This document shows positions 3,214 to 30,899 of a stretch of DNA of 64,000 nucleotides, in pieces. A program made the translations under genes and the position numbers. This DNA is from an uncultured bacterium (GTDB lineage: Bacteria; Acidobacteriota; Aminicenantia; UBA2199). The stretch covers positions 21,935 through 85,934 of the forward strand of contig CBFDCR010000012.1 of NCBI GenBank assembly GCA_965603365.1, in the 5' to 3' direction. Under the pieces are notes generated by a model, which was not told the origin of the DNA, made no database searches, and worked only from the letters and a program-made list of their open reading frames with translations. Each line of letters starts with the position of its first letter. The stretch's first letter is position 1.

Positions 3214-4356
3214 ATGGCCATGATGGAGATTAAGACAGAAACGATCAGTCAATTGAAGGATGTGTTGAAAGATTTTGGCCGACCCGGGGCTACCATCGAC
3301 AGCCTGCAAGAGAAGATGGAGGCATCCAGGGAAAAGAGCGAGCGGAAATTGGCATTCCCGGCGGAATTAATCGATTTGCTGTTTGTCAGGATTTTAAAAT
3401 TCCCCGGACAACAAGGCCCGGGAAAAACCATATGGGCCGTCTATTTTCGCTATCAAAACATCGACTGCTCATTTAAACTGAAAAACATCGGCTTAAGGCT
3501 CTGCCTCCTGCCCGGTCGGGCCAATAAAGCGGACCTGAAGAAAACCGCCGAGGATATTATCGGGAAAACCACCGCGGCCTTGCTGCTGCTGGAACAGGAA
3601 TCATTGATCCCCCTGGGCAAACAGCACATAAAAAAGGGAAATTTCACCCTCGAAAATCAGTTTATAAAATTTTATGAGATGTATCGCTATTTCAGAGATC
3701 AGGCGAGGAAAATAAATGCCAAAATCAACAAAAAATCCCGGGAGGCAAAGAATATCGCCACCTTATTCAAGGAGACATCCCACCTGTCTCAGCAAAGCTT
3801 CTATAACTCCCTGGCCATGATGGATGCCTATTTCGGCGGCTTAGAGCAACTGTTGGTAATCGTATTACCCTTCCTTGACATCAACCTCAAATCACATGAC
3901 TTAGGGAAAATACTGGCAATGAGCTGGCAAGAAAAATTTCCCCGGGTCTTCGATATCCAGGCTAACCAGAAGGCTAGATTATTTTACGATCAGTTCATTT
4001 CACTGGAAGAAAAATTCCGCAATCTCTACGCCCACGGGGGATTTGAAAAAAAGGCTGCTTCTATCTATTGTCATGTTCCTGGGCTGGAGACAGTACCGGT
4101 GCAACTGCTGGGAACAGAACAAAAACTGGCTTTAAACTTCAACCAATTAGAGAAGGTCTTCTTTGAGGATGTATGCCGGCTGTTCGATGAGTTTGACGAG
4201 TGGCTGTTAACGGAAAAGGTCCGGTATGGGATCACCTATGCCCACAGCGGTTTAAGTGTCTCTTTCGATAAAAAATCCAGGACAAAATACCGGAAAGCGA
4301 TGGAATCGGAAGAGAGGTTCAATAAAATGATCAAGGCGCTGCCGGGTAGCAAATAG
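3214..4356 (+). CDS. hypothetical protein with HEPN-like RNxxxH motif
   Basis: Long ORF; first ATG at 3214 (the track starts at TTG 3205). No family recognised. FRNLYAHGG at nt 4018-4035 matches the R-N-x3-H HEPN active-site pattern. Confidence 0.45.
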   Translation: MAMMEIKTETISQLKDVLKDFGRPGATIDSLQEKMEASREKSERKLAFPAELIDLLFVRILKFPGQQGPGKTIWAVYFRYQNIDCSFKLKNIGLRLCLLPGRANKADLKKTAEDIIGKTTAALLLLEQESLIPLGKQHIKKGNFTLENQFIKFYEMYRYFRDQARKINAKINKKSREAKNIATLFKETSHLSQQSFYNSLAMMDAYFGGLEQLLVIVLPFLDINLKSHDLGKILAMSWQEKFPRVFDIQANQKARLFYDQFISLEEKFRNLYAHGGFEKKAASIYCHVPGLETVPVQLLGTEQKLALNFNQLEKVFFEDVCRLFDEFDEWLLTEKVRYGITYAHSGLSVSFDKKSRTKYRKAMESEERFNKMIKALPGSK

Positions 4357-4370
4357 GCAATTCTTGACTC

Positions 4371-5099
4371 TTAATAGAATATCCAGAACAGGAGAAGGGT
4401 AACGAGGCTGCCGGTTAGCGCGCCGAAGGAGATATCCAGAACAGAATGAATCTTCCGCGGCAGCCGGCTCAGGGAGACGAAGATCGCCAGTGCCAATGTA
4501 CCGAAAATAGCGATCCGATGGCTGCTCAAGTTCGTAATGGAAATCCAGATGGAAAAGACAATGGCGGAATGGCCGCTGGGAAATCCCCCCCTTAACGGAT
4601 GCCCTCTGCCGAAGTAGGCCTTGGCCATGATCACGATCAGCATCACCACGATAACCGCCAGCACGGCGATATTTTCCGGGTAGTGTTTGGCGATCCAGAA
4701 CCCTTCACGGATGATTCGCATAAAATAGGGCCAGAGGATCAAATAACCCACCACCAGGGCACCCACGGCGCAGACCAGGACGGCCCCGGCAGCCATGTCT
4801 TTGGCAATGCGGGCGGTTTCATTATTTTCACCATACTTTAAATCAACGATGGCCTCCAACGCCGAGTTGAGCATTTCGGCGGCAATAACCAGGAAAGTGA
4901 CCAGGGTAAGGGCGATAAATTCGTGTTTCTCCACCCCCAGCATGAAACAGCCGAACAGGACAAAAAAGGCCACCATCAGGTGAAATTTGAAGTGCCGCTG
5001 TGTCCTGGCGGCATGGAGTATTCCCTCGACCGCGAAATTGGCAGAATCGATCCAACGAACAAAAATTCTAATAACCGGAATGTCCCGAAGCTTCATCAT
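4371..5099 (-). CDS. fusion of DgkA-type lipid kinase domain and PAP2 phosphatase domain
   Basis: N-terminal half has the DgkA motif AEMLNSALEAIVD. C-terminal half has PAP2 motifs PSGHS and SRLPRKIHSVLD. Confidence 0.75.
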   Translation of the reverse strand: MMKLRDIPVIRIFVRWIDSANFAVEGILHAARTQRHFKFHLMVAFFVLFGCFMLGVEKHEFIALTLVTFLVIAAEMLNSALEAIVDLKYGENNETARIAKDMAAGAVLVCAVGALVVGYLILWPYFMRIIREGFWIAKHYPENIAVLAVIVVMLIVIMAKAYFGRGHPLRGGFPSGHSAIVFSIWISITNLSSHRIAIFGTLALAIFVSLSRLPRKIHSVLDISFGALTGSLVTLLLFWIFY

Positions 5100-5111: not shown

Positions 5112-6119
5112 CTACTTCCAGATGCCGGGGATCTGGGTCTGGCAGTTGCCGCATTGCCCATCCGTCATGTTGATCATCCTGGTATAATAACCGGCCCGCT
5201 CAACCAGCAGCGCGCCGCAGTTGTGGCAGTGGGTGTGATCCCACGCATCCCCCGAAATATTACCGCCGTAGAGGTAGCGAAGCCCCTTTACCTTTGCGGT
5301 TTCCAGGCAGTGAAAGATACTGCCGGTGGGGGTGATGGGCGCATCCGTTAATTTATATTGGGGAAAAAACCGGGACACATGCCAGGGGATATTCTCGTCC
5401 ACTCCCAGGATAAAGTCAATCAGTTGTTTGATCTCTTCCTCATCATCGTTTAAGCCGGGGATTAACAGGGTGGTTAACTCCACCCACACCCCACTCTCAT
5501 TCATCCTCTTGATGGTTTCCAGAACCGGTGCCAGCCTGGCACTGCTGTAGGTTTTGTAAAAATCCTCGGTGTAGGCTTTTAAATCAATATTGGCGGCATC
5601 GAGATAGGGCTCCATCGTGTCAAAGGACTCCCGACTCATATAGCCGTTGGTAACCATGACGTTTTTCAGGCCATTTTCCCTGGCAATCCTGGCGGTCTCC
5701 AGCATCAGCTCAAAGTAGATGGTGGGTTCCGAATAGGTATAGGCGATGGTTTTGGAGTTGTAGGTCAGCGCCTGCCGGACCAACTCTTCGGGAGATATCT
5801 TCTCGCCATATATCTGGTGTTCTCCCGTTACCATAGAGAGGGAGTGATTCTGACAGAAGGTGCACTTAAAATTGCAGCCCATGGCGGCAATCGAAAAAGA
5901 GGTGGATGCCGGCAGGCAGTGATACAGAGGCTTCTTTTCGATGGGATCGGGGTGGGTGGCCGCCACCTTATCGTAATTCAATGAGAATAATTCGCCCTTC
6001 ATATTTTTCCGGACCCGACACACCCCCAACTGGTCCTCTTTGATCACACAATGGTGGGCACAGACATGGCATCTAACCTTGTCTTGATCGATTTTCTCAT
6101 ACAACAGGGCTGGTTTCAT
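5112..6119 (-). CDS. AmmeMemoRadiSam-type radical SAM enzyme (PFL-activase-like)
   Basis: N-terminal Cys cluster CHVCAHHCVIKEDQLGVCRVRKN followed by the rSAM CNFKCTFCQN (CxxxCxxC). 335 aa, the typical length for this family. Confidence 0.75.
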   Translation of the reverse strand: MKPALLYEKIDQDKVRCHVCAHHCVIKEDQLGVCRVRKNMKGELFSLNYDKVAATHPDPIEKKPLYHCLPASTSFSIAAMGCNFKCTFCQNHSLSMVTGEHQIYGEKISPEELVRQALTYNSKTIAYTYSEPTIYFELMLETARIARENGLKNVMVTNGYMSRESFDTMEPYLDAANIDLKAYTEDFYKTYSSARLAPVLETIKRMNESGVWVELTTLLIPGLNDDEEEIKQLIDFILGVDENIPWHVSRFFPQYKLTDAPITPTGSIFHCLETAKVKGLRYLYGGNISGDAWDHTHCHNCGALLVERAGYYTRMINMTDGQCGNCQTQIPGIWK

Positions 6120-6135
6120 GTTGATATCTCCTTAT

Positions 6136-6456
6136 TCACAGGATCTCCATCAGTTTGGCTTCGATCTGAACCTTTTGGACCGAACCCACCAGTTGGGATT
6201 TCACATTGCCGTTTTTCACAAACAGCAGGGTGGGGACACTGCGCACCAGGTACTTAGAAGATGTCCGGGGGCTTTCGTTGACATTGACTTTGAGGATTTT
6301 TACTTGCCCGGGATGATCGTCGGCGACCTTCTGCAAACAGGGCTCGATAGACCGGCAGGGGGCACAGGTAGGGGAAGAGAACTCTACAATAACGGCCCGT
6401 TCATCATTCAGTAGATCGTTAAAATCTGAGTCGTTTGACGGGATCAATTCACTCAT
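6136..6456 (-). CDS. trx: thioredoxin (CAPC active site)
   Basis: 106 aa. Active site FSSPTCAPCRSI, and the cis-Pro region SVPTLLFVKNG. Confidence 0.85.
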   Translation of the reverse strand: MSELIPSNDSDFNDLLNDERAVIVEFSSPTCAPCRSIEPCLQKVADDHPGQVKILKVNVNESPRTSSKYLVRSVPTLLFVKNGNVKSQLVGSVQKVQIEAKLMEIL

Positions 6457-6649
6457 CTATTTTCTCCTTTGTCAATCTTCTAATTTTTTTGATACACATT
6501 TAAACAAACAGGAGGCGAAATCCAATTATAACGCATCCGTCTCATAGGCATATTCTATTATTTTTTCCCGGATATTGTCAAGCGGAAATAAAATTGATTT
6601 TTATTTTGATTTTTCATTCATAATATATGATAATTAACAGTGACTTAAA

Positions 6650-6677
6650 TTGACATTTAGGTTGAATATAATATAAT
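6650..6677 (+). promoter_or_regulatory. sigma70-like promoter for the kinase-like gene (TTGACA-16 nt-TATAAT)
   Basis: TTGACA at 6650-6655 and TATAAT at 6672-6677 in an AT-rich divergent intergenic region. Confidence 0.4.
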
Positions 6678-6710
6678 ACATTATATATAATAGAACGGCA
6701 CCAAGAGACA

Positions 6711-9113
6711 ATGACAGTAGAAATCGACATGCCCGAATTGCCGGAGATACCCGGATACAAGATAATAAGAGTATTGTCTGAAGGGGAGAAGGCCTCGGTT
6801 TGCCTGGGGAGCGGTGAAAAAACGAACCGGAAAGTAGCCATTAAAATCTTCGACCCCTTCAGCTTTGCGGATGAAAAATCTGCCGAGGCTTACTTTGAAC
6901 AGGTAAAAAAACTGTCGACCCTGGAACACCGGAATATCATTTCCGTTTTTGAGGCGGTTTGTCAGGATAAACTTCGCTATGTGGTGATGGAATACCTTGA
7001 GGGGAGCATAAAAGATAGACTTCTCGACCAGGCCCGGTCCGGCCAGCAGGAATTGGTAATAGAGAGCAATATCATAACCGAAGACCAGGCCGGGCAGATT
7101 GAAGATGCGGGAATCGCCTCAAAACCGATTACCCTCCTGGGGGCCCTGAGTATCGCCAAACAAATCGGGGGGGCATTAGATTACAGCCATCAGGCAGGCT
7201 TTTTACACCGCAATATTAACAGTGAAAACATCATGTTTCGCCAGGATGGCACACCGGTACTGATGAATTTTGGCATCATTCCGGAAACGGGCAGCGATAA
7301 AACCGAGGCGAAAGCCAGAATAACGGTGGGTACTCCCGATTTCATGAGTCCGGAACAGTGGCGAAAAGAAGAACTGGACGGCCGCAGCGATATCTACTCC
7401 CTGGGAGTGGTACTGTACGAAATGCTGACCGGTCATCTGCCTTACGAAGGGGATATGTCCGTCGGTGTGGTGGTCAAGCACCTGCAAGAGCCGGTACCCC
7501 CTTTGCCGGATCAGATAAAACAATATCAGACCTTGATTAACCGGACAATGGCCAAAAGGCCGAAAGACAGGGTGCAAAACGGTAAAGAACTGGGTGAGTT
7601 GATCGATTCTCTCCTCGATTCTCCTCAAAAATCCCTTGAAGAAGAGGCCGAAAGCTCTTCCCAGGTATTCCAGAGTGAACGGGAAATAGAGGACTACATA
7701 ATGCCCCAACGAGATCGTTTGGTGTCTTTCGGCTCCGAGGATATCGACGATACCGGTAAAGAAGAGGAGGGTTTGGATCGGCCGGGGATTCACGAGACTC
7801 CTGGATTTAGAAAGTCCCCGGCTGGCGAAAAACGGGGATTCATTGCCGAATTTTTTAGTGATCCGGCAAAACCGGCGCTGGTGGTGGTGATGATCTTCTT
7901 GCTGGGTTTAGCGGTCTACTTTCTGACCAAAACGTTTAAAAGAGAGGCAGTCCCACCTCCCCCTGCCGAGACACAACAGCAGTCAACCGTTAGCCAAAAA
8001 GCGGTACCCACCAAACCCAGAGAGAAAAAACCGACTCGGCCAACGAAGCAAGCCTCCCAACAAACGCTTCAGGATGAGGAATACCAAAAAAATTATCAAC
8101 AGGCAGAAGAATTATTTAACGCCCAGCAGTACGAGGCAGCGTCACAAATACTTGAAGTGGCCAAAAAGATTAAAAATTCAAAAGAAACAAAAAAACTTGA
8201 AAATAATATTCGGCAAGCTCAAAAGGAAAAAGATGAAAAGGATTTTCAACAATATTTTTCCATTGCCCAATCGGAGTTTCGGAGGGGGCGGTATGAAGAA
8301 GCCCAACAGAACCTTGAACTGGCCATAAAAATCAAAACCACCTATGAAGTAACCGAACTGGAGCAGCAGTTAACGTTCAAACTGAAAGAGTTGGAAGCAG
8401 GAAAGCAAGTGGAGGAAAAAAAGCGGCAGGCCACCGAAAGGCAAGACAACGAAACATTCCGGCGATCTTCGATCAGCAACACGACTATGAGCTATCAGGC
8501 CTACCTCAGGAAATTTCCCGACGGTCTTCACGCCCAGGAGGCCCGGAAACGGATCGAGACACTGAAGGGAGGAAGGCTGGCACCTCTTACAACAAAACAA
8601 ACAATGCCGGTGGGAACAGTAAAACTCAGGACAAAACCGAAGGCCCTGAACCCCGCCGAAGTGAAATCCATGCTGAAAAAATGGGGCTTTTTCGACAATC
8701 TGGACAACAAAACCGGTAATTTTCGCAATTCCTTCAGTGTGAAGATTATGGGTAGAGACCGGGTGGTATTGGACGAGGCAACCGGCCTGATGTGGCACAC
8801 AGGCGGCTCAAACGAATACATGAGTTTTGCCAAAGCCGAGGCCTGGGTAGACAAATTCAATCGTATGGGCTATGCCGGATTTACCGACTGGAGACTGCCA
8901 ACCTTAGAAGAGGGGGCCTCGCTGCTGGAGAATCAGAAGAGCGCCAACGGACTCTTTATCGATGCTGTTTTCTTTGGCCGACAGAGTTGGATTTGGACAG
9001 CCGATCCCTATGGTTCCGACGGTCGGTGGCTGGTACGCTTCGACAGTGGAGATGTCTACGGCCGTTCCGTTTTTGACAGCAATTATGTGCGGGTGGTCCG
9101 CTCCATCCAATAG
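6711..9113 (+). CDS. Hanks-type Ser/Thr kinase homologue (degenerate catalytic motifs), TM, coiled-coil/TPR-like region, C-terminal DUF1566 (Lcl C-terminal-like) domain
   Basis: KVAIKIF (VAIK) and GTPDFMSPEQ are present, but HRD is HRN (7206-7214) and DFG is NFG (7266-7274). TM helix ALVVVMIFLLGLAVYF. The C-terminus (GLMWHT...FTDWRLPTLEE...YVRVVRS) is typical of DUF1566. Confidence 0.8.
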   Translation: MTVEIDMPELPEIPGYKIIRVLSEGEKASVCLGSGEKTNRKVAIKIFDPFSFADEKSAEAYFEQVKKLSTLEHRNIISVFEAVCQDKLRYVVMEYLEGSIKDRLLDQARSGQQELVIESNIITEDQAGQIEDAGIASKPITLLGALSIAKQIGGALDYSHQAGFLHRNINSENIMFRQDGTPVLMNFGIIPETGSDKTEAKARITVGTPDFMSPEQWRKEELDGRSDIYSLGVVLYEMLTGHLPYEGDMSVGVVVKHLQEPVPPLPDQIKQYQTLINRTMAKRPKDRVQNGKELGELIDSLLDSPQKSLEEEAESSSQVFQSEREIEDYIMPQRDRLVSFGSEDIDDTGKEEEGLDRPGIHETPGFRKSPAGEKRGFIAEFFSDPAKPALVVVMIFLLGLAVYFLTKTFKREAVPPPPAETQQQSTVSQKAVPTKPREKKPTRPTKQASQQTLQDEEYQKNYQQAEELFNAQQYEAASQILEVAKKIKNSKETKKLENNIRQAQKEKDEKDFQQYFSIAQSEFRRGRYEEAQQNLELAIKIKTTYEVTELEQQLTFKLKELEAGKQVEEKKRQATERQDNETFRRSSISNTTMSYQAYLRKFPDGLHAQEARKRIETLKGGRLAPLTTKQTMPVGTVKLRTKPKALNPAEVKSMLKKWGFFDNLDNKTGNFRNSFSVKIMGRDRVVLDEATGLMWHTGGSNEYMSFAKAEAWVDKFNRMGYAGFTDWRLPTLEEGASLLENQKSANGLFIDAVFFGRQSWIWTADPYGSDGRWLVRFDSGDVYGRSVFDSNYVRVVRSIQ

Positions 9114-13136: not shown

Positions 13137-13207
13137 TGTGGTGGTGAAATCGATTCGAGCTGAAGATACATTGTTGGCAGATATTAAATAAAAAAAGGAG
13201 ATATCCC

Positions 13208-13369
13208 ATGACAACCAGGAAATTTGACAAAAAATTGGTTCTGAACAAGAGAACCGTGTCCCACCTGGACAACAAAGAGATGAAAAACTTACATGGTGGG
13301 GCGAAAGTTACCCAAAGAGAAACACTATGCCCCCCCACCTGCCTTACCTGTAATTGGGAGTGTCTTTAA
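13208..13369 (+). CDS. RiPP-like precursor peptide 1 (double-glycine leader, 4-Cys core), 53 aa
   Basis: Own translation: MTTRKFDKKLVLNKRTVSHLDNKEMKNLHGG / AKVTQRETLCPPTCLTCNWECL. AGGAG lies 7 nt upstream. The leader is paralogous to those of 13399-13551 and 18794-19042. Confidence 0.75.
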   Translation: MTTRKFDKKLVLNKRTVSHLDNKEMKNLHGGAKVTQRETLCPPTCLTCNWECL

Positions 13370-13398
13370 AGCCGGTGAGTCTTTACAAGAAGGTAATC

Positions 13399-13551
13399 GT
13401 GAAGGCCAAAAAACTTAACAAAAAGCTGGTTTTGAACAAAAAGACCATGTCCAATCTGGACACAGAGGAGATGAACCGCATCCACGGCGGAAAATTCACC
13501 TTTGATTTCCCCACCTGTTACTACAGTTGCCATACCTGTTTCTGCCCGTAA
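13399..13551 (+). CDS. RiPP-like precursor peptide 2 (double-glycine leader, 4-Cys core), about 50 aa
   Basis: GTG 13399 gives (M)KAKKLNKKLVLNKKTMSNLDTEEMNRIHGG / KFTFDFPTCYYSCHTCFCP. Start chosen by alignment with peptides 1 and 3. The track shows a TTG-extended 65-aa ORF from 13354. Confidence 0.7.
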   Translation: MKAKKLNKKLVLNKKTMSNLDTEEMNRIHGGKFTFDFPTCYYSCHTCFCP

Positions 13552-18793: not shown

Positions 18794-19042
18794 TTATGGA
18801 CAATAGAAGGTGCACATAGTTATCGTCCAGTAGGTGGGCACGCAGTCGATAATCGTTTCGCAGTAAGGTTCGACGAATGTAATGCAACCGGCTGCTGTAC
18901 ATCTTGGTTCGTTGGTTTGACATTCGATGGGGCAAGTTACTGTAACACGGCCGCCTCTTACTTGACTCAGTTCATCATTACCAAGGTTGGCAATGGTTTT
19001 TTTGTTTAGCACCAGTTTTTTTGAAAACTTTTTTGTCTTCAT
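18794..19042 (-). CDS. RiPP-like precursor peptide 3 (double-glycine leader, 8-Cys 51-aa core), 82 aa
   Basis: MKTKKFSKKLVLNKKTIANLGNDELSQVRGG / RVTVTCPIECQTNEPRCTAAGCITFVEPYCETIIDCVPTYWTITMCTFYCP. SD GGAGGA upstream. The C-terminal CP end resembles peptide 2. Confidence 0.75.
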   Translation of the reverse strand: MKTKKFSKKLVLNKKTIANLGNDELSQVRGGRVTVTCPIECQTNEPRCTAAGCITFVEPYCETIIDCVPTYWTITMCTFYCP

Positions 19043-19255: not shown

Positions 19256-19271
19256 ATTGCTGGAGACGACA

Positions 19272-19574
19272 ATGGCAGAAGTTATACGTATCAATGAAAA
19301 TATAAAAGATATTTTATTAAAACATACCCAAAAGCAGACCCCGGAAGAGAGTCTCAATGAGATATTAAAGAATGAAATCCACAGAAAGATTAAGAGATAC
19401 CTTTTGATGGTTAGACATTTTGAGAGGAAATATAATACTGATTTTGACCGCTTTGAGGCGATGAATAAAGACACCAGGATGGATTATGAAACGGAAAAAG
19501 ATTACTTTGACTGGGACATGGCCGTCACTGCCTTAGAAGATTTACATACGGAATTGACCCAACTCCAGCCATAA
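19272..19574 (+). CDS. hypothetical helical protein (antitoxin-like size and charge)
   Basis: 100 aa from ATG 19272 (MAEVIRINENIKD...). No family recognised. Confidence 0.4.
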   Translation: MAEVIRINENIKDILLKHTQKQTPEESLNEILKNEIHRKIKRYLLMVRHFERKYNTDFDRFEAMNKDTRMDYETEKDYFDWDMAVTALEDLHTELTQLQP

Positions 19575-19581
19575 AAAACTT

Positions 19582-19926
19582 TTTGAGGAACCCAAAATAG
19601 TAATAAGACAAACATCAGATAAAATTGTAGCAACATACGATGAAAAACAATTTTATGCCCTGAACAATGTAATTATTTTAAAACTTAATCATAATATAGA
19701 TCTTAATTACAAATTCATTCTCTGATTTCATCAAAGAAATCAAAAATCAAAAGACATCCCTCTCCAAGAAAGAAGAATTTGACTTAATGGGTCTATTTGA
19801 AGAACAAAAGTCCAACACCCTGACCCTCCAAAAGGAAATTGACCAGGTCGACAGAGAAATCGACCAGATGGTATATCAATTATACGGGCTGACCGACCAG
19901 GAGATTAAGATCGTAGAGGAGTCATA
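19582..19926 (+). pseudogene. remnant of the C-terminus of a type IIG / Eco57I-like restriction-modification enzyme (frameshifted, 5'-truncated)
   Basis: Own translation, frame A 19582-19725: FEEPKIVIRQTSDKIVATYDEKQFYALNNVIILKLN... (TaqI-like specificity-domain pattern). Frame B 19727-19926: ...LQKEIDQVDREIDQMVYQLYGLTDQEIKIVEES* (typical C-terminal tail of these enzymes). Confidence 0.6.
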
Positions 19927-19972
19927 ACGCAATTTTCGGTTGTCCCCTATTTTTCGTCCCGAAGTGTCCGTT

Positions 19973-20311
19973 TCCGGACAAAATTTCTCTGATGTCAGAG
20001 AAAATCTTTCCGACGTCAGATAAAATTTCTCCGATGCCGGACAAAATTCTTCCGATGCCAGACAAAATCTTTCTGATGTCAGACAAAATTTCTCCGATGC
20101 CAGATAAAATTTCTCTGACGCCAGACAAAATCTTTCTGATGTCAGACAAAATTTCTCCGATGCCAGACAAAATCTTTCCGACGTCAGACAAAATTTCTCC
20201 GATGCCAGACGAAATTCCTCTGATGCCAGACAAAATCTTTCTGATGATGTCAGACAAAATTTCTCCGATGCCAGACAAATTTTGTCCGATAACGGACACC
20301 ATTTATCCGTC
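19973..20311. repeat. tandem array B, 16 units of 21 bp (G[TC]CAGACAAAAT[CT]T[TC]TC[CT]GA[TC]) with 42-bp alternation
   Basis: Units counted by hand from 19973 (one 24-bp unit at 20225). Alternating variants are GTCAGACAAAATTTCTCCGAT and GCCAGACAAAATCTTTCTGAT. Confidence 0.9.
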
Positions 20312-20387: not shown

Positions 20388-20416
20388 TTGACTTTTTTGT
20401 TATGGTTCTATACAAT
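20388..20416 (+). promoter_or_regulatory. promoter TTGACTTTTTTGT...TACAAT for the propeller/rSAM gene string
   Basis: TTGACT at 20388-20393, 17-nt spacer, TACAAT at 20411-20416. ATG 20422 begins 6 nt after the -10 box. Confidence 0.5.
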
Positions 20417-20421: not shown

Positions 20422-21471
20422 ATGATAGAAAAGAGGGTTCCGTGCATTGAGGAGTGGGAGGTATTGCCCAAAGCTGGGGCGTTTTATAAGAGAGTCACTG
20501 TGTTTATCCTGTTTGCGGTATTACTTCACTGTGCCTTTTATGCCAGCCAGGTGGATTTGCCGGAAGTATTGGCCCCTGCCTCTATCCATGTATACGGCGG
20601 CCGAATGTTCATTGCCGAAGCCGCGGCCATTCACATTTACTCGTTGAAGGACTTTAAACAGATAAAGCAATTTGGTCGGCAGGGTACGGGGCCGGGTGAG
20701 TTTTTCCGGGATACCAGACTCACCGTTTTCCCGGAGAGACTCGTGGTAAACACCTTTGGAAAACTGATCTTTTTTTCCCATGATGGCCTGTTGATGGAAG
20801 AGCACAAAAAAGCCGTTGAAATTATGTGGATATATCCGGTTGGCGATTGTTTTGTGGGGTCTGAGTTTGTACCCAGGGTTCAGAAAATCAACATCTATGA
20901 TGGAAATTTTCATCGTGTAAAAAATATCTTCGAGGGCTCGATCGGCTGGGTCTCATATTTCGAGAGCGGAACCGCAAAACAGGACCTCATTATGGTCAAG
21001 GATTACGCTGCACCGCATGTTTATAAAGATAAGATCTATATTTTTGATTCATCGAAGGGTTTCTTCTTTGCTGTTTTTGACAGCAGTGGAAAGAAGATTT
21101 TTGAGAAGAACATAGAGTATAAACCGCCGAAGGTCAGCGCCGACTACAAGAAGGAGAGGTTGAGACGGCTGGAAGAATCCCCCTGGTTCAAGAGTAGCAA
21201 AGATAGGTTTAATCCTGTATTCCCCGATTTCTTCCCTCCATACCGGTCGGTACGAATTTCAGATGACAGGATATACTTCGTTACTTATCTAAACATCGAC
21301 AATAAAGATGAAGTCGTCGTCACCGATTTAGAGGGCAATCTCATAAAGAAAACGTACATCCCCGCCACCCTTTACGACAAATACATCTTTACCATCAGCG
21401 GCAATAAGGTATACTCTCTAATTGAAGACGACAAAGAAGAATTATGGCAATTACTCATAGGAGATTTATAG
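20422..21471 (+). CDS. six-bladed beta-propeller-like exported protein (paralogue of 29758-30759)
   Basis: FGRQGTGPGEF motif and repeated beta-strand pattern; hydrophobic N-terminal segment VTVFILFAVLLHCAFYA. An alternative start is TTG 20464, preceded by GGAGTGGGAGG. Confidence 0.6.
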   Translation: MIEKRVPCIEEWEVLPKAGAFYKRVTVFILFAVLLHCAFYASQVDLPEVLAPASIHVYGGRMFIAEAAAIHIYSLKDFKQIKQFGRQGTGPGEFFRDTRLTVFPERLVVNTFGKLIFFSHDGLLMEEHKKAVEIMWIYPVGDCFVGSEFVPRVQKINIYDGNFHRVKNIFEGSIGWVSYFESGTAKQDLIMVKDYAAPHVYKDKIYIFDSSKGFFFAVFDSSGKKIFEKNIEYKPPKVSADYKKERLRRLEESPWFKSSKDRFNPVFPDFFPPYRSVRISDDRIYFVTYLNIDNKDEVVVTDLEGNLIKKTYIPATLYDKYIFTISGNKVYSLIEDDKEELWQLLIGDL

Positions 21472-21487
21472 GAAAAAGGAGGCATCG

Positions 21488-21673
21488 ATGATAAAAAATT
21501 TCTTTGGAGGAGTTGAAGAGCCGATGACCCCGGAGTCGGTTACCCTGGGTTGTGGTTGTTGGTGCAGTTGCGAAGGGGCCTGTGGCGATCAAAACGGCAA
21601 TAGTACCAGCATGACTGATTTGAATTGCTCACCGTTTCCTAAAGTTGCAATTATTTTGCCACCCCCAGCTTAA
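21488..21673 (+). CDS. Cys-rich small peptide, candidate rSAM/SPASM substrate
   Basis: MIKNFFGGVEEPMTPESVTLGCGCWCSCEGACGDQNGNSTSMTDLNCSPFPKVAIILPPPA. Strong SD AAAGGAGG 5 nt upstream. Lies 51 nt upstream of the rSAM/SPASM gene. Confidence 0.6.
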   Translation: MIKNFFGGVEEPMTPESVTLGCGCWCSCEGACGDQNGNSTSMTDLNCSPFPKVAIILPPPA

Positions 21674-21724: not shown

Positions 21725-23311
21725 ATGCCACCACATCATATGAAAGTACTGGAAAGCAAAAATAAAGATAATGCTGACCCTCAGATTTGGGCCAAACTCT
21801 TTGAAATTAACGAGAAAAGATATTGTTACGATGTGGGGACTAACCATATTATGGAAGTTGATGATGTCTTGTATGAGGTCTTGAAAAAATACAATTATTC
21901 CAATAAAAAGAGGATAGCCGCAGATTTGTCATCCAGATATTCGGTTGAGGATATTGAAAGAGCGGTTGGCGCGGTGGACGAATTCAGCCAGGCCAAAGGG
22001 GGATTTATACTTCAAAAAAGGATTCGTCTGGCGTTTCCTTTCAGCCAGCGTGAATATAAGTTTCTTCTGGAACATTTTCTCAGTCATCTGATTTTGAATA
22101 TTACAGAAGACTGCAATTTACGTTGTAAATACTGTGCGTTCAGTGGGAGTTATAAATATAGAAGGACTCACAAAAAAGTTTCGATGCCATGGCCGGTTAT
22201 TCAGAAGGCAGTTGATTTCTTTATCCCCCGAACCGTTTTGAGGATAAATGAATTAAAGAGGCCTGTGTCTTTTGGCTTTTATGGAGGAGAGCCCCTATTG
22301 GAGCCAGGGAAAATGTTCAAAACGGTGGAATACGTTCGGCACAGATGGCCGGATATTTTCCCTGAGATTAATTTTGCCATCACCACAAATGGGACTTTGC
22401 TTTCCCGAGAAATAATTGACCCATTAATAAAGTATAATTTTGGGATTACTATAAGTCTGGATGGTTACAAGGAGTTACACGATAAGAGCCGCATTTTTAT
22501 GAAGGGAGGGGGAACGTACGACATAATAATGAAAAACATTGATTTAATTAAAAAAATTGACCGTGAGTATTTCAGACAAAGAGTATTTTTTGCTGGGGCC
22601 ATGTCCCCCCCATATGATCTTCACGGAATACTTGAATATTTTCGCAGGGAGTTCCCAAACCAGGAGATCCCAAATGTGTATAGCCTGGTGGATGAATTTG
22701 ACACCGATTTTTTCGATAATTTCGATATGGATGAAGAGAATAGAAAATATGCACAGCAATCCTTTGAAGCCAGATGTGAATTTATAAAGAAAAAAATGGA
22801 AGGTGAGGATGATCCCATATTATCTGGTTTTATTCAAGATAATACAATGGACATCCATAACAGGAAACTTTTCAGTCTCCCGGAAGCGACATATCCCAAT
22901 GGTTGTTGCCCCCCAGGATTAAAAAAACTTTTTGTGGACACGGAAGGAAGATTTCATGTATGTGAGAGGGTGAATTCATATTTTAGCATTGGAGATCTGG
23001 ATAATGGATTTGATATCCCCAAAATATTCGATCTAATAGACGGATACTCAAAAGCAGCCGATCACTGGAAATATTGCTGGGCGATCAGGTTTTGCAACTC
23101 TTGTTTTGTCTCCGTTATTGAGGGCGATCATTTCTCAAGGGAGAGAAAAAAGACAATGTGTGAGAGAACAAAAGGCGACATCTTAAGTCGGCTGGTTACG
23201 TATGTCTATCTGGCGGAGCATAATCCCCGACTATTTGATAAAAAGTATTTCAGAGGGGAAGATACGGTGGGGGATCTGGTAAAATACCTCCAGCAGAATA
23301 AGTTACATTAA
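21725..23311 (+). CDS. radical SAM/SPASM-type peptide-modifying enzyme
   Basis: ITEDCNLRCKYCAF (CxxxCxxC), FYGGEPLL, and a C-terminal Cys cluster (CCPPG...GRFHVCERV...CWAIRFCNSC) like the SPASM auxiliary-cluster domain. About 100-aa N-terminal extension. Confidence 0.8.
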   Translation: MPPHHMKVLESKNKDNADPQIWAKLFEINEKRYCYDVGTNHIMEVDDVLYEVLKKYNYSNKKRIAADLSSRYSVEDIERAVGAVDEFSQAKGGFILQKRIRLAFPFSQREYKFLLEHFLSHLILNITEDCNLRCKYCAFSGSYKYRRTHKKVSMPWPVIQKAVDFFIPRTVLRINELKRPVSFGFYGGEPLLEPGKMFKTVEYVRHRWPDIFPEINFAITTNGTLLSREIIDPLIKYNFGITISLDGYKELHDKSRIFMKGGGTYDIIMKNIDLIKKIDREYFRQRVFFAGAMSPPYDLHGILEYFRREFPNQEIPNVYSLVDEFDTDFFDNFDMDEENRKYAQQSFEARCEFIKKKMEGEDDPILSGFIQDNTMDIHNRKLFSLPEATYPNGCCPPGLKKLFVDTEGRFHVCERVNSYFSIGDLDNGFDIPKIFDLIDGYSKAADHWKYCWAIRFCNSCFVSVIEGDHFSRERKKTMCERTKGDILSRLVTYVYLAEHNPRLFDKKYFRGEDTVGDLVKYLQQNKLH

Positions 23312-23375
23312 TCGTGAATCCCGAAATAACGATCAATAGATCTCAAAATCATAGAATAGTTTAAAGAGGTTGACG

Positions 23376-25256
23376 ATGCCCAAAGATGGGATAAAACGAA
23401 TAGTGATGCATTGGATGCCGCCGGCAATGATTACGACCCCTTCCCTTTCCTACTCTATATTAAAAAGTTTCATGAATCAGCATGGGTATGATAGCGAGAT
23501 TATTTATTGGAATCAGTTGATATTTAAAATCATGAGACCATTCTTTTATGGTGGGAGGCTTCAAGATTCTGCTGTAGACAATTTATTTCTTGCACCCTTT
23601 TTATTGGAGATTTCGGATAAGTACAGTGACACCCTTAAAAAGAAAAGGGTTTTATCTTTTTTGCGGAGTAATTTATTGAAATTTACAATCAAGGAGGATG
23701 AAGTCGAAGAATATATTTGGGATATTAGGGGAAAAATCGGGCGCTTAGTGGATTCCATTCTGGCTGAGATGGAGGCCGAGAATATTTTCCTGTTCGGATT
23801 TTCCAGTAAATTTTTTCAATGGCTCCCCGGCATGTTACTGGCGGAAAAGTTAAAAGAAAAGTTCCCCGGGATTAAAATAGTAATTGGCGGGTTTGGAGAT
23901 CAGAACGCAGCCCGAGAAATACTTCACCTGTGTCGATATTTTGATTTTGCCGTGTGGGGGGAGGGGGAATATCCACTTCTCGGACTCTGCCAGCGATTGG
24001 AAGATGGTGGCAATCGTTTCGAGTCGATCCCCCGGTTGTTATATTGGGGGCAAGGGGAGGAGATTAAGGCCACCTCATCCCGCAGCCGCTATTTAAATTT
24101 TGATAACTATATGTATCCTGACTTTTCAGATTTTATCGAATCTTATAACAATGAAGAATTGAGAAAAAATATTTACTTTCCCATTGAATCCTCCAGGGGC
24201 TGCCACTGGAACCGCTGTAAATTTTGTACTTTGAATGTGGGGTATAAATACAGAACCCGATCCCCCGAAAGTATTGTTCGGGAGATTGAATTTATGTTTG
24301 ATAAACATAAAATACACCGTTTTCGATTTGCAGACAACGATATTGTGGGAAAGAGCATAGGGCAGTTTGAAAGATTACTGGAGATGGTCACTGCATCATC
24401 ATTGAGAAATCGGGTCAAGTATGACCTCTATGCAGAGATTGTCCACCACGGATTCAATTCCCGGCTTATAAAAAAAATGGCAGTCGCGGGTTTTACCCAC
24501 GTTCAGATCGGCTACGAAGCCATTACCGATGGCTTGTTGAAAAAGATTGATAAAAAAGCAGATTTCGCCGATCATATCCTTTTTGTAAAATTCGCTTCAA
24601 AATATGGAATTTCTATAACCGGAGCCAACATCTTACGGGGGATTATCGGCGAGACCGAAGACGACGTTCTGGAAGGTATTCATGATTTGACATTTCTAAG
24701 ATTCTTTTTAAAAGATGCACCTATTCAGTTTTATCATTATATAAGTGAGCTGCGACTTTCTGGAGGGAGCCGGTTTTTCCAGATGTTGAGCCTGGAAGAG
24801 CGTAAAAAATGGAACGCTAGCGCCATGACTTATTTTATCCCCCAGTGGTTCATCGTGAAAGATAACGATCGACGTTTTGGGCTGTTTTCCTTTTCCAGGG
24901 AGTTGGATAATAAAGTCGAATGGGAAAATTTTGAAAAGTTAAATAACTTTCTCGAAAAAACCGAGGTAACGTATCAAATACTTGAAAATAACGGGATTTA
25001 TTATTACAGTGAATTCATGGCCGGGAAGCGGGTGAATTATATCGTGTTCGATGAACCGGAATATTGGCAGGTATTAAAAGCTGCCAACAACGAGGTAAAA
25101 TCTTTTAAAGAAATATTCGCCGAAGTCAAGACAAAATTCCCCGGTATTATCGAAAAATATCTGGTTGAGATTATTGAAAAACTAAAAAATGATTTTTTGA
25201 TTTACTCCAACAAAGATTTAACGAGAATTGTATCAGTCATGGACACCGGTGAATAG
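23376..25256 (+). CDS. B12-binding-domain radical SAM protein (RiPP-maturation rSAM type)
   Basis: N-terminal Rossmann-like region, then ESSRGCHWNRCKFCTL (CxxxCxxC variant typical of class B rSAM). ATG 23376 follows AAGAGG; the track starts at TTG 23370. Confidence 0.75.
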   Translation: MPKDGIKRIVMHWMPPAMITTPSLSYSILKSFMNQHGYDSEIIYWNQLIFKIMRPFFYGGRLQDSAVDNLFLAPFLLEISDKYSDTLKKKRVLSFLRSNLLKFTIKEDEVEEYIWDIRGKIGRLVDSILAEMEAENIFLFGFSSKFFQWLPGMLLAEKLKEKFPGIKIVIGGFGDQNAAREILHLCRYFDFAVWGEGEYPLLGLCQRLEDGGNRFESIPRLLYWGQGEEIKATSSRSRYLNFDNYMYPDFSDFIESYNNEELRKNIYFPIESSRGCHWNRCKFCTLNVGYKYRTRSPESIVREIEFMFDKHKIHRFRFADNDIVGKSIGQFERLLEMVTASSLRNRVKYDLYAEIVHHGFNSRLIKKMAVAGFTHVQIGYEAITDGLLKKIDKKADFADHILFVKFASKYGISITGANILRGIIGETEDDVLEGIHDLTFLRFFLKDAPIQFYHYISELRLSGGSRFFQMLSLEERKKWNASAMTYFIPQWFIVKDNDRRFGLFSFSRELDNKVEWENFEKLNNFLEKTEVTYQILENNGIYYYSEFMAGKRVNYIVFDEPEYWQVLKAANNEVKSFKEIFAEVKTKFPGIIEKYLVEIIEKLKNDFLIYSNKDLTRIVSVMDTGE

Positions 25257-25359
25257 CGAAGGGTGGGGGAGGAGTCGGATTTGTTGACATGGGGGGGGAA
25301 TTAATTTAAAATTTGTTTTGGTGTGAAATTGTTTTAATAAGTAGAGGTTGAAGCGGTCT

Positions 25360-26100
25360 ATGAGAAGTGTGGTTCAGGTAATAAAAAAGTCGGGTTCGTC
25401 GAAACAGATGGTGATGTTTCCCTTTGGGGGCGGCAGCGGCTATTCGTTTATGGAACTGGTCAAGGAGATTACGGCGGATGCCGAAGTCATCGTGATCAAT
25501 CCGCCGGGTCACATGTTCAACAACGGCAAGCCCCTGGAGAGTATCGATGCCATGGCCTATCTCTATTCAAGGGAACTCCTCCCTCTTTTAAAAGAGAACT
25601 GCCTGTTTTTCGGCCACAGCATCGGCGCACTGGTAGCCTATGAGATGTGCCGGGACTTAGAACGGAAACTGAATATTAAGAAACTGATCATCTCCAGTGT
25701 CAATCCCCCCCACTGTGTGATGGCTGAGGTGGATATGCATTCCGGCATGGATACGCCGCAGTTGATTCAAAAATCGATAAAAATGGGCGGCATGCCGGAG
25801 ATCTTCAAGGAAGATTCCGATCTGCTGGAGAAGTTCATCGCCGGTTTGAGGGCGGATTTGAAGGCCCTGGAGAGATATGACGGCGGTAAATGGGCCGATG
25901 CCGGTAAAATAGGGACCGGCGGCCTGGTATTATACAGCGACGGGGATTATATTGTCGATCCGCTGAAGGTAAGAGAGTGGAACCGGTACCTGGATTGTTC
26001 AGATTTCGTCCAATTTTCCGGCGACCACTTCTACCTGTTCGAGCCGGCCAATCTAAAAGCGGTGGCCCGGCTGCTATCTACCCAGATCAATATGGGGTAG
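25360..26100 (+). CDS. type II thioesterase-like alpha/beta hydrolase
   Basis: MVMFPFGGGSGYSF (like FPYAGG), nucleophile elbow GHSIGA, C-terminal GDHFYL (His). Start uncertain (TTG 25348, ATG 25360 or ATG 25408). Confidence 0.7.
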   Translation: MRSVVQVIKKSGSSKQMVMFPFGGGSGYSFMELVKEITADAEVIVINPPGHMFNNGKPLESIDAMAYLYSRELLPLLKENCLFFGHSIGALVAYEMCRDLERKLNIKKLIISSVNPPHCVMAEVDMHSGMDTPQLIQKSIKMGGMPEIFKEDSDLLEKFIAGLRADLKALERYDGGKWADAGKIGTGGLVLYSDGDYIVDPLKVREWNRYLDCSDFVQFSGDHFYLFEPANLKAVARLLSTQINMG

Positions 26101-26127: not shown

Positions 26128-27363
26128 ATGAAAAAGTGGGGAATTTATTTTGTTTTTTTTCTATTTTTTAGCCTATCTGCAACGGCCGAAGAGATCCACG
26201 TTCTGGCCGCCAATGGGGAGTTGACCAAAATTCAGGCCTTACTGCAAAAGCAGCCGGAGTTGGTAAACCGTCTGGATCAGGACAAATGGACGCCCCTGCA
26301 CTTTGCCGCTCTTGGGGGCCATCTTAAGGTGGCGGCGTGCCTGGTTGACCGGGGAGCAGAGGTCAATGCCGTGGATAAATATGGGTTGGCGCCCCTGGAT
26401 CTGGCGGCACTGAAAGAGTCCGACCCCCTGGTAGATCTGCTGATCCGCCGGGGCGCCGAAATACGCTCCCGGGAGGAAATATTGGATCGTCTGGGACAGC
26501 GCACCGAAATACCGGTGTTAAACTTCAAGAAGGAGTTGGTGGAACTGCTGGCCAGTAAGGGAATCACCCCGGAGGCGGGCTCCCGGAGCTTCAGCGCCAT
26601 TACCCTGGTGATGGCCATCATGAAGGTGAGGGAGGATGTGGCCGGTATTAAGGATTTAAAGGAGTTGGACCAGAGGCCGACGTTTCATCCGGGTACGACG
26701 TCGCTCCACCAGGCGGCCGAAAAAGGGGATTTGCCCCGGGTCAAATACCTGGTTCAGTCGAATCCCCGGGCGGTGAATGTGGGAGATGAGTTTGGCATTA
26801 CCCCCCTTCACTTTGCCGCCATCAACAACCAAAGGGAAGTCGTCGAATATTTGATTGCCCAGGGAGCCCTGATAAATACCAGAACCCACAAGGGTATAAC
26901 CCCTTTATACGGGGCCTGCAGCGAGGGCCGTAAGGAAATCGCAGCATTGCTGATTGCCAGGGGTGCGGTTGTCAATGCCGCCACTGTGGAGGGCGCTACC
27001 CCCCTTCATGCTGCCCCCACCCGGGAAGTAGCGGAACTGCTGATCAAGCATGGGGCAAAGGTGATGGCTCTGAACAAGTATGGCTATACCCCCCTGCACA
27101 TCGCCGCCCTCTACGGGCATACCGCAGTGGCCAGGTACCTGATCTCAAGGGGGGCGGGGGTCAATCAAAAGAACGTGTTTGGCTGGACCCCGTTAATGGA
27201 GGCGGTCTACGGTAACCATGGGGACGCGGTGCTGCTGCTGCTGGAAAAGGGGGCCTACGTTAATGCCAAAAATCAAAGCGGTTCCACCGCGCTGGAGATT
27301 GCTACTATTTTAAAAAGCCGTGAGATAGCCGCTATCCTCCGGAAACACGACGCCTTTCGCTGA
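26128..27363 (+). CDS. secreted ankyrin-repeat protein
   Basis: Signal peptide MKKWGIYFVFFLFFSLSATA and multiple TPLH[FI]AA...G....LL..GA..N repeats. Confidence 0.85.
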   Translation: MKKWGIYFVFFLFFSLSATAEEIHVLAANGELTKIQALLQKQPELVNRLDQDKWTPLHFAALGGHLKVAACLVDRGAEVNAVDKYGLAPLDLAALKESDPLVDLLIRRGAEIRSREEILDRLGQRTEIPVLNFKKELVELLASKGITPEAGSRSFSAITLVMAIMKVREDVAGIKDLKELDQRPTFHPGTTSLHQAAEKGDLPRVKYLVQSNPRAVNVGDEFGITPLHFAAINNQREVVEYLIAQGALINTRTHKGITPLYGACSEGRKEIAALLIARGAVVNAATVEGATPLHAAPTREVAELLIKHGAKVMALNKYGYTPLHIAALYGHTAVARYLISRGAGVNQKNVFGWTPLMEAVYGNHGDAVLLLLEKGAYVNAKNQSGSTALEIATILKSREIAAILRKHDAFR

Positions 27364-29757: not shown

Positions 29758-30759
29758 CTATTCATCCAGATTGTGCAGGTGAAGCTCCCACTCTTCTTCG
29801 TCCATGCTTTCTATGAGTTGATAAAGTTTGCCGTTTTTGACGGCAAAGGGATAGAGATCGGCGGAACTCATGTTTTTAAGGGGCAGTAATACCCTTTTCA
29901 AGAGTTTTCCTTTCAGATGAAATACCAGAATTTCGTAGTTTTCGTTCTCTTTTTTCCAGGTTATGGCATAGACTTTTTGGCCGTCGGCGGCGATCTCCCG
30001 CACCGCCGGGTAGCGGTCGGGAAATTTTATGGGTTTTAACATCTCGGAAAACTGTTTGATCTCGGGGTCTGTCTTTAAATAGTGGATGACCCGATTTTTG
30101 TCCTTTTCCGTGACTTTGATTCTCCGGTACTCTTTCGTTATGGCGTACAGTTTTTGGCCGTTTTCGTCGAAAACATCGATCACGAAGTCTTCTTTCACCG
30201 CGAGCAATAGCTTATCCCCGCAAATATCGGCAGACAGGGTTCTGGCAAAGGCTTTCGTACCCTTGCCCGGTTGAAATTCGACCTCCCATCTGGCTACCTC
30301 TTTTTCCTTTTTTACGGTTGCATCGTAGATGTTCATGGTGTTGTACAGGGTGCCGTCATCCACCACGATTCCGGCCCCGATAAATTTTTTCCCCAGCACC
30401 CGAAATCTCCGGTGATTGGCAGGGGTCCTCATCTCTTTGATAAATTTCCCCTCTTTTGTCAGGTACGAGAGCTTGCCCACGCTGTTGACGATTATGTGAT
30501 CAGCCTGGATGTCGATGAGGTAAATCTTATCCTTAAATTCTGCCGGGCCTTCCCCCTCCCGGCCGAACTGCTGGAGCAACCGGTAATCCTCCAGGGAATA
30601 GACAAAGACCGTTGTCCTGTCGGCCACATAGAGTCTATCTTCATCCACGGCCATGGCCCCGGGTTTCGTCAACTGGCTGAAGACCGCCACCCTTTTACCG
30701 AAAACCTGGGTTGAAAGTATAAAAAACAAGGCCAATAACAATAAAAGTAGTTTTTTCAT
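29758..30759 (-). CDS. six-bladed beta-propeller-like exported protein (paralogue of 20422-21471)
   Basis: Signal peptide MKKLLLLLLALFFILSTQVFG and FGREGEGPAEF motif. Start set at ATG 30759 behind AGGAGG. The track extension to 30879 has no support. Confidence 0.65.
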   Translation of the reverse strand: MKKLLLLLLALFFILSTQVFGKRVAVFSQLTKPGAMAVDEDRLYVADRTTVFVYSLEDYRLLQQFGREGEGPAEFKDKIYLIDIQADHIIVNSVGKLSYLTKEGKFIKEMRTPANHRRFRVLGKKFIGAGIVVDDGTLYNTMNIYDATVKKEKEVARWEVEFQPGKGTKAFARTLSADICGDKLLLAVKEDFVIDVFDENGQKLYAITKEYRRIKVTEKDKNRVIHYLKTDPEIKQFSEMLKPIKFPDRYPAVREIAADGQKVYAITWKKENENYEILVFHLKGKLLKRVLLPLKNMSSADLYPFAVKNGKLYQLIESMDEEEWELHLHNLDE

Positions 30760-30816
30760 GTTTCCTCCTGGACTTTTTAAATGAAAGCAAAGCTTTTTTT
30801 GTATCATTGTGCTATA

Positions 30817-30845
30817 ATAATAGAACAATAATGCAAATTTGTCAA
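30817..30845 (-). promoter_or_regulatory. promoter module (copy 2): TTGACA-17 nt-TATTAT, near-identical to 17690-17745
   Basis: Minus strand: TTGACAAATTTGCATTATTGTTCTATTATTATAGCACAATGATACAAAAA, compared with TTGACTTTTTTGTATTATTGTTCTATAATAATAGCACAATGAAACAAAAA at 17690. Confidence 0.55.
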
Positions 30846-30899
30846 CCCCAAAATTTTTTTTCTTGACTGCCCGAATCATGAACCGCGAATCAGGAAAGA

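Follow-up and report, generated by a model that had tools for sequence, protein, structure and literature searches.

The closest characterised relatives of the enzyme at the centre of this study are the radical S-adenosylmethionine (rSAM) maturases CteB, RumMC, PapB and QhpD, all of which form cysteine thioethers. Precursors of the ruminococcin C type carry a CxC-type motif and become hairpins cross-linked by Cys-S to C-alpha bonds, and the gamma subunit of quinohemoprotein amine dehydrogenase (QHNDH) is thioether-cross-linked by the SPASM enzyme QhpD. For a further type, the CcpM-like enzymes, we know of no solved chemistry. SacP23 of Paenibacillus polymyxa, of the CcpM/CLI_3235 type, is active against Gram-positive bacteria (PMC10731318). 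Here, we analysed a 64-kb stretch of contig CBFDCR010000012.1 from an uncultured bacterium of the Aminicenantia (the window), in which an rSAM/SPASM gene starts 51 nt downstream of a 61-codon open reading frame (ORF). This small ORF is a real gene under purifying selection, and its sequence and setting make it probable that it encodes the precursor of a ribosomally produced peptide with post-translational modifications (RiPP), the cognate substrate of the downstream enzyme. The small-peptide family most likely represents a rare, new and so far unnamed group of RiPP precursors, and the peptide is probably thioether cross-linked, because the nearest characterised relatives of the enzyme, the four named above, all make such bonds.

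A small conserved gene upstream of a SPASM enzyme

The product of the ORF, MIKNFFGGVEEPMTPESVTLGCGCWCSCEGACGDQNGNSTSMTDLNCSPFPKVAIILPPPA, is 61 aa long and has cysteines at residues 22, 24, 26, 28, 32 and 47. Its length is no evidence of a gene, because 144 ORFs of at least 30 aa occur in the surrounding 16 kb; it is conservation that sets it above chance. The original prediction had ranked its Shine-Dalgarno (SD) sequence, at 5-nt spacing, among the strongest in the window, and rightly so: AAAGGAGG occurs only once on the + strand of the 64 kb, as the SD of this very ORF, and three times on the - strand, with AAGGAGG present five and nine times, respectively.

Homologues were approached from the neighbouring enzyme, by fetching the contigs of its orthologues. 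We examined 11 orthologous loci (L002-L010, L091 and L092), whose enzymes are 41-56% identical to the window rSAM/SPASM protein; L008 and L010 are one lineage and hence not independent of each other. In all 11, the enzyme gene is immediately preceded on its 5' side by between one and three small Cys-rich ORFs on the same strand. Six loci (group 1; enzymes 44-56% identical) hold one clear homologue each, exemplified by MIKGFFGGVKEPIDIPVSTTLGCGCTCSCPDTHDTVNGPTTMNTDLNCQPLPKFLYIGPMPT in L006. The remaining five (group 2; enzymes 41-43% identical) encode shorter, divergent peptides in which the C-x-C-x-C motif is present, such as MIKILDALPFNNIITNEPICKCGCNCGSYG... and MMKIFPSI...GCACGCG..., with two or three tandem copies in four loci and a single one in L091. 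A comparison of the two group profiles by hhalign aligned residues 1-34, spanning the Cys block and the leader before it, at a probability of 92% (E=5e-7). An alignment of 18 sequences shows no variation at M1, I2, G7, G8, C22, C24, C26 and C28 and almost none at F5, G23 and P58, and the family signature comprises a MIxxF[FY]GG N-terminus and a GCGCxCxC block. Most of the homologous ORFs are also preceded by an SD (AAGGAGG or GGAGG), 4-8 nt ahead of the ATG. The window gene can be divided as follows.

21475-21482, + strand: Shine-Dalgarno sequence AAAGGAGG, 5 nt (CATCG) ahead of the ATG at 21488
21488-21673, + strand: putative precursor-peptide gene, 61 codons plus a TAA stop at 21671-21673 (translation; homologues in 11 of 11 orthologous loci)
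21488-21550, + strand: putative leader, residues 1-21, with the conserved start MIxxF[FY]GG[VI] (18-sequence alignment); candidate RRE-binding region
21551-21583, + strand: Cys block CGCWCSCEGAC; C22, C24, C26 and C28 invariant, C32 specific to the window copy
21584-21628, + strand: variable polar segment, rich in D, N, S and T, ending in the conserved L45-x-C47 (alignment); candidate cross-link acceptor
21629-21670, + strand: hydrophobic, Pro-rich C-terminal tail SPFPKVAIILPPPA; group-1 homologues have QP.P.F....P.P, group 2 is without it

Substitutions between the small ORFs fall mostly at codon position 3, and the ratio of non-synonymous to synonymous substitution rates (dN/dS) ranges from 0.06 to 0.35 across unsaturated pairs. 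Listed below are the differences at codon positions 1 / 2 / 3 and the dN/dS of each pair.

L003 and L006 small ORFs: 7 / 5 / 29, dN/dS 0.097
L008 and L010, peptide 1: 3 / 2 / 20, dN/dS 0.06
L008 and L010, peptide 2: 10 / 9 / 14, dN/dS 0.35
L008 and L010, peptide 3: 8 / 2 / 20, dN/dS 0.07
window and L003 small ORFs: 18 / 23 / 35, dN/dS 0.28 (dS near saturation)
window and L006 small ORFs: 19 / 20 / 35, dN/dS 0.17 (dS near saturation)

A single-sequence word search with the 61-aa peptide returned only the peptide itself, and no Pfam or NCBIfam model matched it. A profile search of 5.8 billion clusters with the locus-derived peptides, in turn, yielded 14 proteins, and an exhaustive phmmer search of 1.84 billion representatives gave nine true matches together with one spurious repeat protein; in total, the family has about 20 members among ~15 billion proteins. 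Conservation in all 11 loci and a dN/dS well below 1 show that the 61-codon ORF is a real gene, kept by purifying selection and strictly tied in position to this enzyme clade. The original prediction had proposed looking for the ORF beside orthologues of the enzyme and for purifying selection on its frame, and both were found.

The adjacent maturase and the proposed chemistry

21725-23311, + strand: predicted rSAM/SPASM maturase with an RRE-like N-terminal domain, 528 aa (hidden Markov models (HMMs), orthologue alignment, AF2, Foldseek)

The enzyme may in fact start at the ATG at 21740, matching the 523-aa database entry P0002, and belongs to a tight set of orthologues (P0003-P0034) with 38-56% identity. 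It carries both the radical-SAM CxxxCxxC motif and the seven-Cys SPASM motif: C125, C129 and C132 as well as C390, C408, C446, C452 and C455 are invariant, and the SPASM residues C443 and C474 are at least 90% conserved in 33 orthologues (numbering of P0002, that is, 5 lower than in the 528-aa ORF from 21725). PF04055 was matched with 67.6 bits, and the best NCBIfam models all scored under their cutoffs.

CcpM (TIGR04068): 314.8 bits, cutoff 500, residues 24-499; best-scoring named model
RumMC (NF035951): 229 bits, cutoff 720; second-best model
lachnocin maturase: 196 bits, cutoff 550
GG_samocin (TIGR04148): 150.8 bits, cutoff 300, residues 119-506
PapB: 136 bits, cutoff 340
QhpD: 131 bits, cutoff 453; match spans the whole length
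SCIFF maturase: 118.4 bits, cutoff 425

Every one of these nearest models describes a peptide maturase, and thioether formation is established for RumMC, PapB, QhpD and the SCIFF maturase. The best match in the PDB by sequence was CteB (5WGG; E=3.6e-24, about 20% identity), with an alignment that begins within the CteB N-terminal domain. An AF2 model based on the 33 orthologues (predicted local distance difference test score (pLDDT) 91.8) places a beta3-alpha3 domain with the topology of a RiPP recognition element (RRE) at residues 18-86, and Foldseek ranked CteB first among structural matches to this model (template-modelling (TM) score 0.67-0.76). The predicted N-domain and the CteB alignment agree with the RRE-like N-terminal extension that the original prediction had ascribed to the enzyme. 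Distant enzyme relatives (25-35% identity) likewise have CxCxC-rich small peptides alongside, some of which match the CLI_3235, Apre_1838 or lachnocin models. Scanning genome contigs with the rSAM protein gave L001, a 36%-identical Ruminococcus relative, as the sole match, and a metagenome scan with the orthologue profile found distant relatives only (at most 35% identity). At another locus, L011, an rSAM/SPASM gene (196-1704; 35% identical) has a different, Cys-containing N-terminal region that replaces the RRE-like domain, and a gene for a GG-leader Cys-rich peptide (1796-2074, - strand) is convergent with it.

The small ORF thus has the general features of a RiPP precursor gene: it adjoins, and is conserved together with, a peptide-modifying enzyme in 11 of 11 loci, and alignment and enzyme model together suggest a conserved leader region alongside a variable core, and an RRE in the maturase. 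In the mechanism we propose, the MIxxF[FY]GG[VI] start and the roughly 12 variable residues that follow would serve as a short leader docking on the RRE-like N-domain. By means of a 5'-deoxyadenosyl radical and its pair of auxiliary Fe-S clusters, the SPASM enzyme would then link the GCGCxCxC thiols, and perhaps that of C47, to carbons within the polar, D/N/S/T-rich segment that comes next, giving a compact multi-thioether knot of the sacti- or ranthipeptide-like kind. Where present, a B12-dependent rSAM enzyme would most likely C-methylate the same peptide, and an exported NHL-like propeller might act on or bind the product outside the cytoplasm, for processing, binding or immunity.

The 51-nt gap between peptide and enzyme genes in the window holds no terminator or hairpin, as judged by a promoter/terminator scan and by folding of the spacer (z 0.08). 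Stable RNA hairpins do lie between the precursor and SPASM genes of four orthologous loci (L003 5828-5977, L004 5872-6005, L005 4880-5005 and L006 4806-4955), with z-scores of -1.9 to -5.7 against shuffled sequences. These may be attenuators or mRNA-stabilising elements, which are often found after RiPP precursor genes.

Partner genes and alternative explanations

20422-21471, + strand: exported beta-propeller protein, NHL/DUF5128-like; stop 16 nt before the small-ORF ATG
23370-25256, + strand: B12-binding rSAM enzyme, probable C-methyltransferase and accessory partner (PF02310, PF04055)
13148-13369 (+), 13354-13551 (+) and 18794-19042 (-): GG-leader Cys-rich peptides with a KKLVLNK...GG leader in common

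Small peptide, SPASM enzyme and propeller form a constant trio: a propeller orthologue adjoins the enzyme in all 11 loci, with 2-18 nt between its stop and the small-peptide ATG in group 1. All propeller orthologues have a hydrophobic N-terminal segment resembling a signal peptide, and a lipobox-like Cys is present in several. Beside distant enzyme relatives a propeller was found in 3 of 80 loci; one of the three, L015, also encodes an upstream peptide starting MKNFYVFP and containing CGGNCVCDDEACAEKC. The window propeller matches PF17170/PF15869 weakly (DUF5128/TolB-like), and its structure model, resting on an alignment of the two window paralogues only, is of low confidence (pLDDT 59.7). 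In Foldseek this model resembled NHL domains (six-bladed; TM ~0.55) and, more remotely, BtuG cobalamin-binding propellers (TM ~0.35). We read the product, with low confidence, as an NHL-like beta-propeller and nothing finer, and rejected a BtuG/B12 link as unsupported. Its only conserved residues are G88, G90, P91, E93, G122, D220 and G305, none of them catalytic-looking, and a search of the literature on DUF5128, NVEALA and propellers with SPASM or radical SAM enzymes found nothing relevant.

A second TolB-like/DUF5128-like propeller with a signal peptide, 27% identical to the first, is encoded at 29758-30879 (-) of the window, with no rSAM gene or small Cys-rich ORF adjoining. L092 has three DUF5128 propeller paralogues (2285-3289, 3802-4959 and 5949-7100, all -) around a SPASM gene with two tandem precursors, a cluster which suggests joint expansion of the propeller family and the system. 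Upstream of the window propeller, a 21-bp tandem repeat, GACAAAATTTCTCCGATGCCA, covers 19977-20290 (14.8 copies, 79% match; long spurious ORFs in several frames) and ends about 100 bp before a promoter-like TTGACT-17-TACAAT at 20388-20416 and the propeller start. A regulator-binding array is one possibility; Tandem Repeats Finder detected no equivalent array in the orthologous loci.

The B12-rSAM protein has B12-binding and radical SAM domains and scored 197.4 bits against TIGR03975, below the cutoff of 281.85. Orthologues with 48-57% identity are adjacent in 4 of the 11 loci: in L002, L003 and L006 they come directly after the SPASM gene, which those of L002 and L006 overlap or abut, whereas the L004 orthologue follows the propeller gene. 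None is adjacent in L005, L007, L008, L009, L091 or L092, and the B12-rSAM of L010 is only 27% identical and lies 3.6 kb downstream. Further along the window, a thioesterase (25348-26100) and an ankyrin gene (26128-27363) were considered as core parts and rejected, since no fetched locus has a homologue of either; from this comparison, both are probably outside the core module.

The three GG-leader peptides of the window all pass NF038153 (lant_leader_L1a), 18794-19042 with 44.5 bits. Against TIGR04149, a model of rSAM-modified RiPPs with a cutoff of 25 bits, 13408-13551 passes with 31.5 bits and 13190-13369 reaches 24.4 bits. No TIGR04148 maturase, LanB/C lanthipeptide enzyme or C39 transporter was found in the 64 kb. 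In L008 (4031-4246) and L010 (4121-4285), a GG-leader peptide is encoded just upstream of the three tandem CxCxC peptides and the SPASM gene, on the same strand; its core is homologous to that of 18794-19042, with the Cys spacing and the elements T-[DN]-E, C-I-[ST] and P-[FY]-Y-C alike. A pattern scan of the other nine orthologous loci found no GG-leader peptide within 5-8 kb, leaving the window and L008/L010 as the only places where one was seen, and 18794-19042 is an uncertain member of the module. Between this peptide and the propeller operon lie a 105-aa ORF (19257-19574, +; weak, sub-cutoff Pfam matches and no NCBIfam match) and a 46-aa ORF (19787-19927, +) that, read from its translation, resembles a gene fragment; the intervening stretch may be left over from inserted material.

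The 61-aa peptide itself is of a different kind. As the original prediction had noted, it is without the KKLVLNK...GG leader, and its single GG stands at residues 7-8; it gave no match to TIGR04149. A C39-type double-glycine leader is ended by its GG after about 15-25 residues. The GG at 7-8 is too near the N-terminus for this and is missing from group-2 homologues, and we therefore infer from the alignment that it is part of a conserved N-terminal motif rather than a cleavage site. The window has no C39 or ABC gene, and none is conserved across the loci.

Which enzyme acts on which peptide can be judged from co-occurrence. The trio occurs without an adjacent B12-rSAM gene in the six loci listed above, which argues for the small peptide as the most likely cognate substrate of the SPASM enzyme rather than of the B12 enzyme. 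Orthologues of the latter, in turn, occur in four loci (L002, L003, L004 and L006) that have no GG-leader peptide within 5-6 kb, so that it, too, most likely acts on the small peptide. An alternative raised in the original prediction, by which the small peptide is the SPASM substrate and the GG-leader peptides belong to the B12-rSAM enzyme, therefore holds in its first half only: those four loci leave the second half unsupported, and the L008/L010 lineage has a GG-leader peptide and no orthologous B12-rSAM.

Maturation by the SPASM enzyme, or by the entire module, might instead extend to both the MIxxFFGG-leader peptide and the Cys-rich peptides with a KKLxLNK...GG leader, possibly giving a two-component product; the original prediction, too, had raised a locus with two substrate families. 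This proposal gains from the same-strand GG-leader peptides in L008 and L010, from the TIGR04149 scores of the two peptides at 13 kb, from the lack in the 64 kb of the dedicated maturase, lanthipeptide enzymes and transporter named above, and from the GG-leader peptide alongside the L011 relative with its different N-terminus. We nevertheless consider it unlikely: nine of the 11 orthologous loci have no such peptide nearby, L008 and L010 count as one lineage and leave only two independent co-occurrences, and one RRE normally reads one leader type. Within the window, moreover, the nearest GG-leader peptide is 1.4 kb off, on the opposite strand and beyond unrelated ORFs and the tandem repeat, and the other two are 8 kb off, past a TRAP transporter. 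An analogy to the QHNDH gamma subunit would make the cross-linked peptide a small subunit or tight ligand of the exported propeller. The propeller's presence in all 11 loci and its scarcity beside distant relatives, the short group-1 gaps that suggest coupled expression, the end-to-end QhpD match and the absence of conserved catalytic-looking residues would all fit. QhpD, however, ranks well behind the best-scoring model (131 bits, with a cutoff of 453, where CcpM reaches 315), the loci conserve none of the partners typical of QHNDH (cytochrome, protease, exporter), the peptide's variable middle and the tandem group-2 paralogues resemble diversifying natural-product cores rather than an enzyme subunit, and the propeller model is of low confidence, which together render the analogy rather improbable. 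The same low standing applies to its strongest form, an obligate three-part system of peptide, SPASM enzyme and propeller in which the cross-linked (here B12-methylated) peptide would be a dedicated propeller ligand, cofactor or subunit and no free antibiotic, which would carry the logic of QHNDH gamma over to an unrelated protein family; in a milder variant, one maturase may serve two unrelated leader types.

Very improbable is a role of the small ORF as a regulator, immunity factor or Fe-S/metal-binding helper, with the true substrate elsewhere. The CxCxCxC block could bind metal, and the family has no annotated function in Pfam or NCBIfam, but the gene bears hallmarks of a RiPP precursor (position directly 5' of an RRE-bearing maturase, conserved N-terminus, hypervariable middle, tandem copies in group 2 and very strong SDs), and most orthologous loci have no other candidate peptide nearby. 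As to a chance ORF without a product, short ORFs are plentiful in the window and the word search found nothing but the query; even so, we regard this as practically negligible and as refuted by dN/dS, the profile and phmmer searches and the 18-sequence alignment, since position, frame, SD and motifs are kept in 11 of 11 loci and the roughly 20 homologues were called as genes in independent assemblies.

Several points weigh against the precursor reading that we prefer. For the cross-link chemistry, we extrapolate from relatives sharing only 20-35% identity, the cross-links of SacP23 are themselves still 'to be elucidated' (PMC10731318), and CcpM is described only as 'previously annotated' (PMC9062424). 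Across the loci, the module has no conserved protease or exporter, the peptide has no signal peptide that would bring it to the exported propeller, and the leader/core boundary at residue 21 is a guess. Finally, because two lineages (the window and L008/L010) have GG-leader Cys-rich peptides close to the module, the small peptide may not be the sole substrate.

Elsewhere in the window, 5112-6119 (-) encodes an AmmeMemoRadiSam-system radical SAM enzyme (TIGR04337, 316 bits, above cutoff) that is unrelated to the RiPP module. A 929-aa NACHT NTPase fused to an FGE-sulfatase domain (47528-50317, +) and an 800-aa Ser/Thr kinase with an Lcl C-terminal domain (6711-9113, +) have no evident link to the small-peptide module. 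An Rfam scan of the window returned one tRNA only.

Significance and comparison with known systems

These findings turn an unannotated 61-codon ORF into a testable candidate RiPP precursor of a new family that Pfam and NCBIfam do not recognise, and the family alignment could seed an HMM so that such genes are no longer missed in annotation. Among thioether-forming rSAM/SPASM enzymes, the branch to which the family belongs is the least understood, and the full-text literature searched gave no description of the combination of peptide, B12-rSAM enzyme and exported beta-propeller. A product structure would reveal the fate of a CxCxCxC block under radical chemistry, as well as the role of DUF5128-type propellers beside peptide-modifying rSAM enzymes. 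Such families are a frequent product of genome mining, and nothing unexpected has so far been shown of the chemistry of this one.

Among described systems, CcpM (TIGR04068) and CLI_3235 (TIGR04065), with SacP23 as an example, share with the window an rSAM/SPASM enzyme of ~500 aa beside a small precursor that combines a short N-terminal leader with a CxCxC-rich block, and distant relatives of the window enzyme have true CLI_3235 peptides alongside. The enzyme nevertheless stays well below the 500-bit TIGR04068 cutoff (314.8 bits), the window peptide does not match TIGR04065 at E<=0.1 and two of its homologues do not at E<=10, and its leader reads MIxxFFGG instead of MKxLxKK.... Where the SacP23 cluster has TIGR04066/TIGR04069 partners and a subtilase, the window has the exported propeller and the B12-rSAM enzyme. 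SCIFF peptides and other ranthipeptides with CteB-type maturases (TIGR03973/TIGR03974) provide the best structural match in both sequence and fold, including the RRE domain, and have in common with the window a complete SPASM domain and a short precursor with about six cysteines. The leader and the arrangement of the cysteines are different, however, identity to CteB is about 20%, and neither the enzyme (118.4 against 425 bits) nor the peptide matches the SCIFF models. The likeness of the Cys block to SCIFF/ranthipeptide substrates, suggested in the original prediction, thus extends to a Cys-rich peptide with a CteB-like enzyme, but not to membership of the SCIFF family by HMM.

RumMC (ruminococcin C) and Apre_1838 (TIGR04067) are represented by the second-best enzyme model, though far under its 720-bit cutoff and without peptide homology. 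Similarly, the GG-Bacteroidales system (TIGR04148/TIGR04149) is echoed by the TIGR04149-type peptides of the window and by the match of TIGR04148 to the catalytic and SPASM part of the enzyme. In contrast to that system, the enzyme scores half the TIGR04148 cutoff (150.8 against 300 bits) and has an extra RRE-like N-domain, the 61-aa peptide is without a GG-type leader, and most orthologous loci have no GG peptide. QHNDH gamma and QhpD, in turn, offer a parallel in that a SPASM enzyme goes together with a small polypeptide containing Cys and with a beta-propeller partner in the periplasm; here, the QhpD score is far below cutoff, genes for a haem subunit, protease and exporter are absent, and the propeller is NHL/DUF5128-like. 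By analogy with its nearest enzymes, on which the class assignment rests, the module would work like a sacti- or ranthipeptide system. Within this recognised theme, its own leader, its Pro-rich tail and a propeller partner in all loci mark the window family, as far as sequences can tell, as a new and rare branch.

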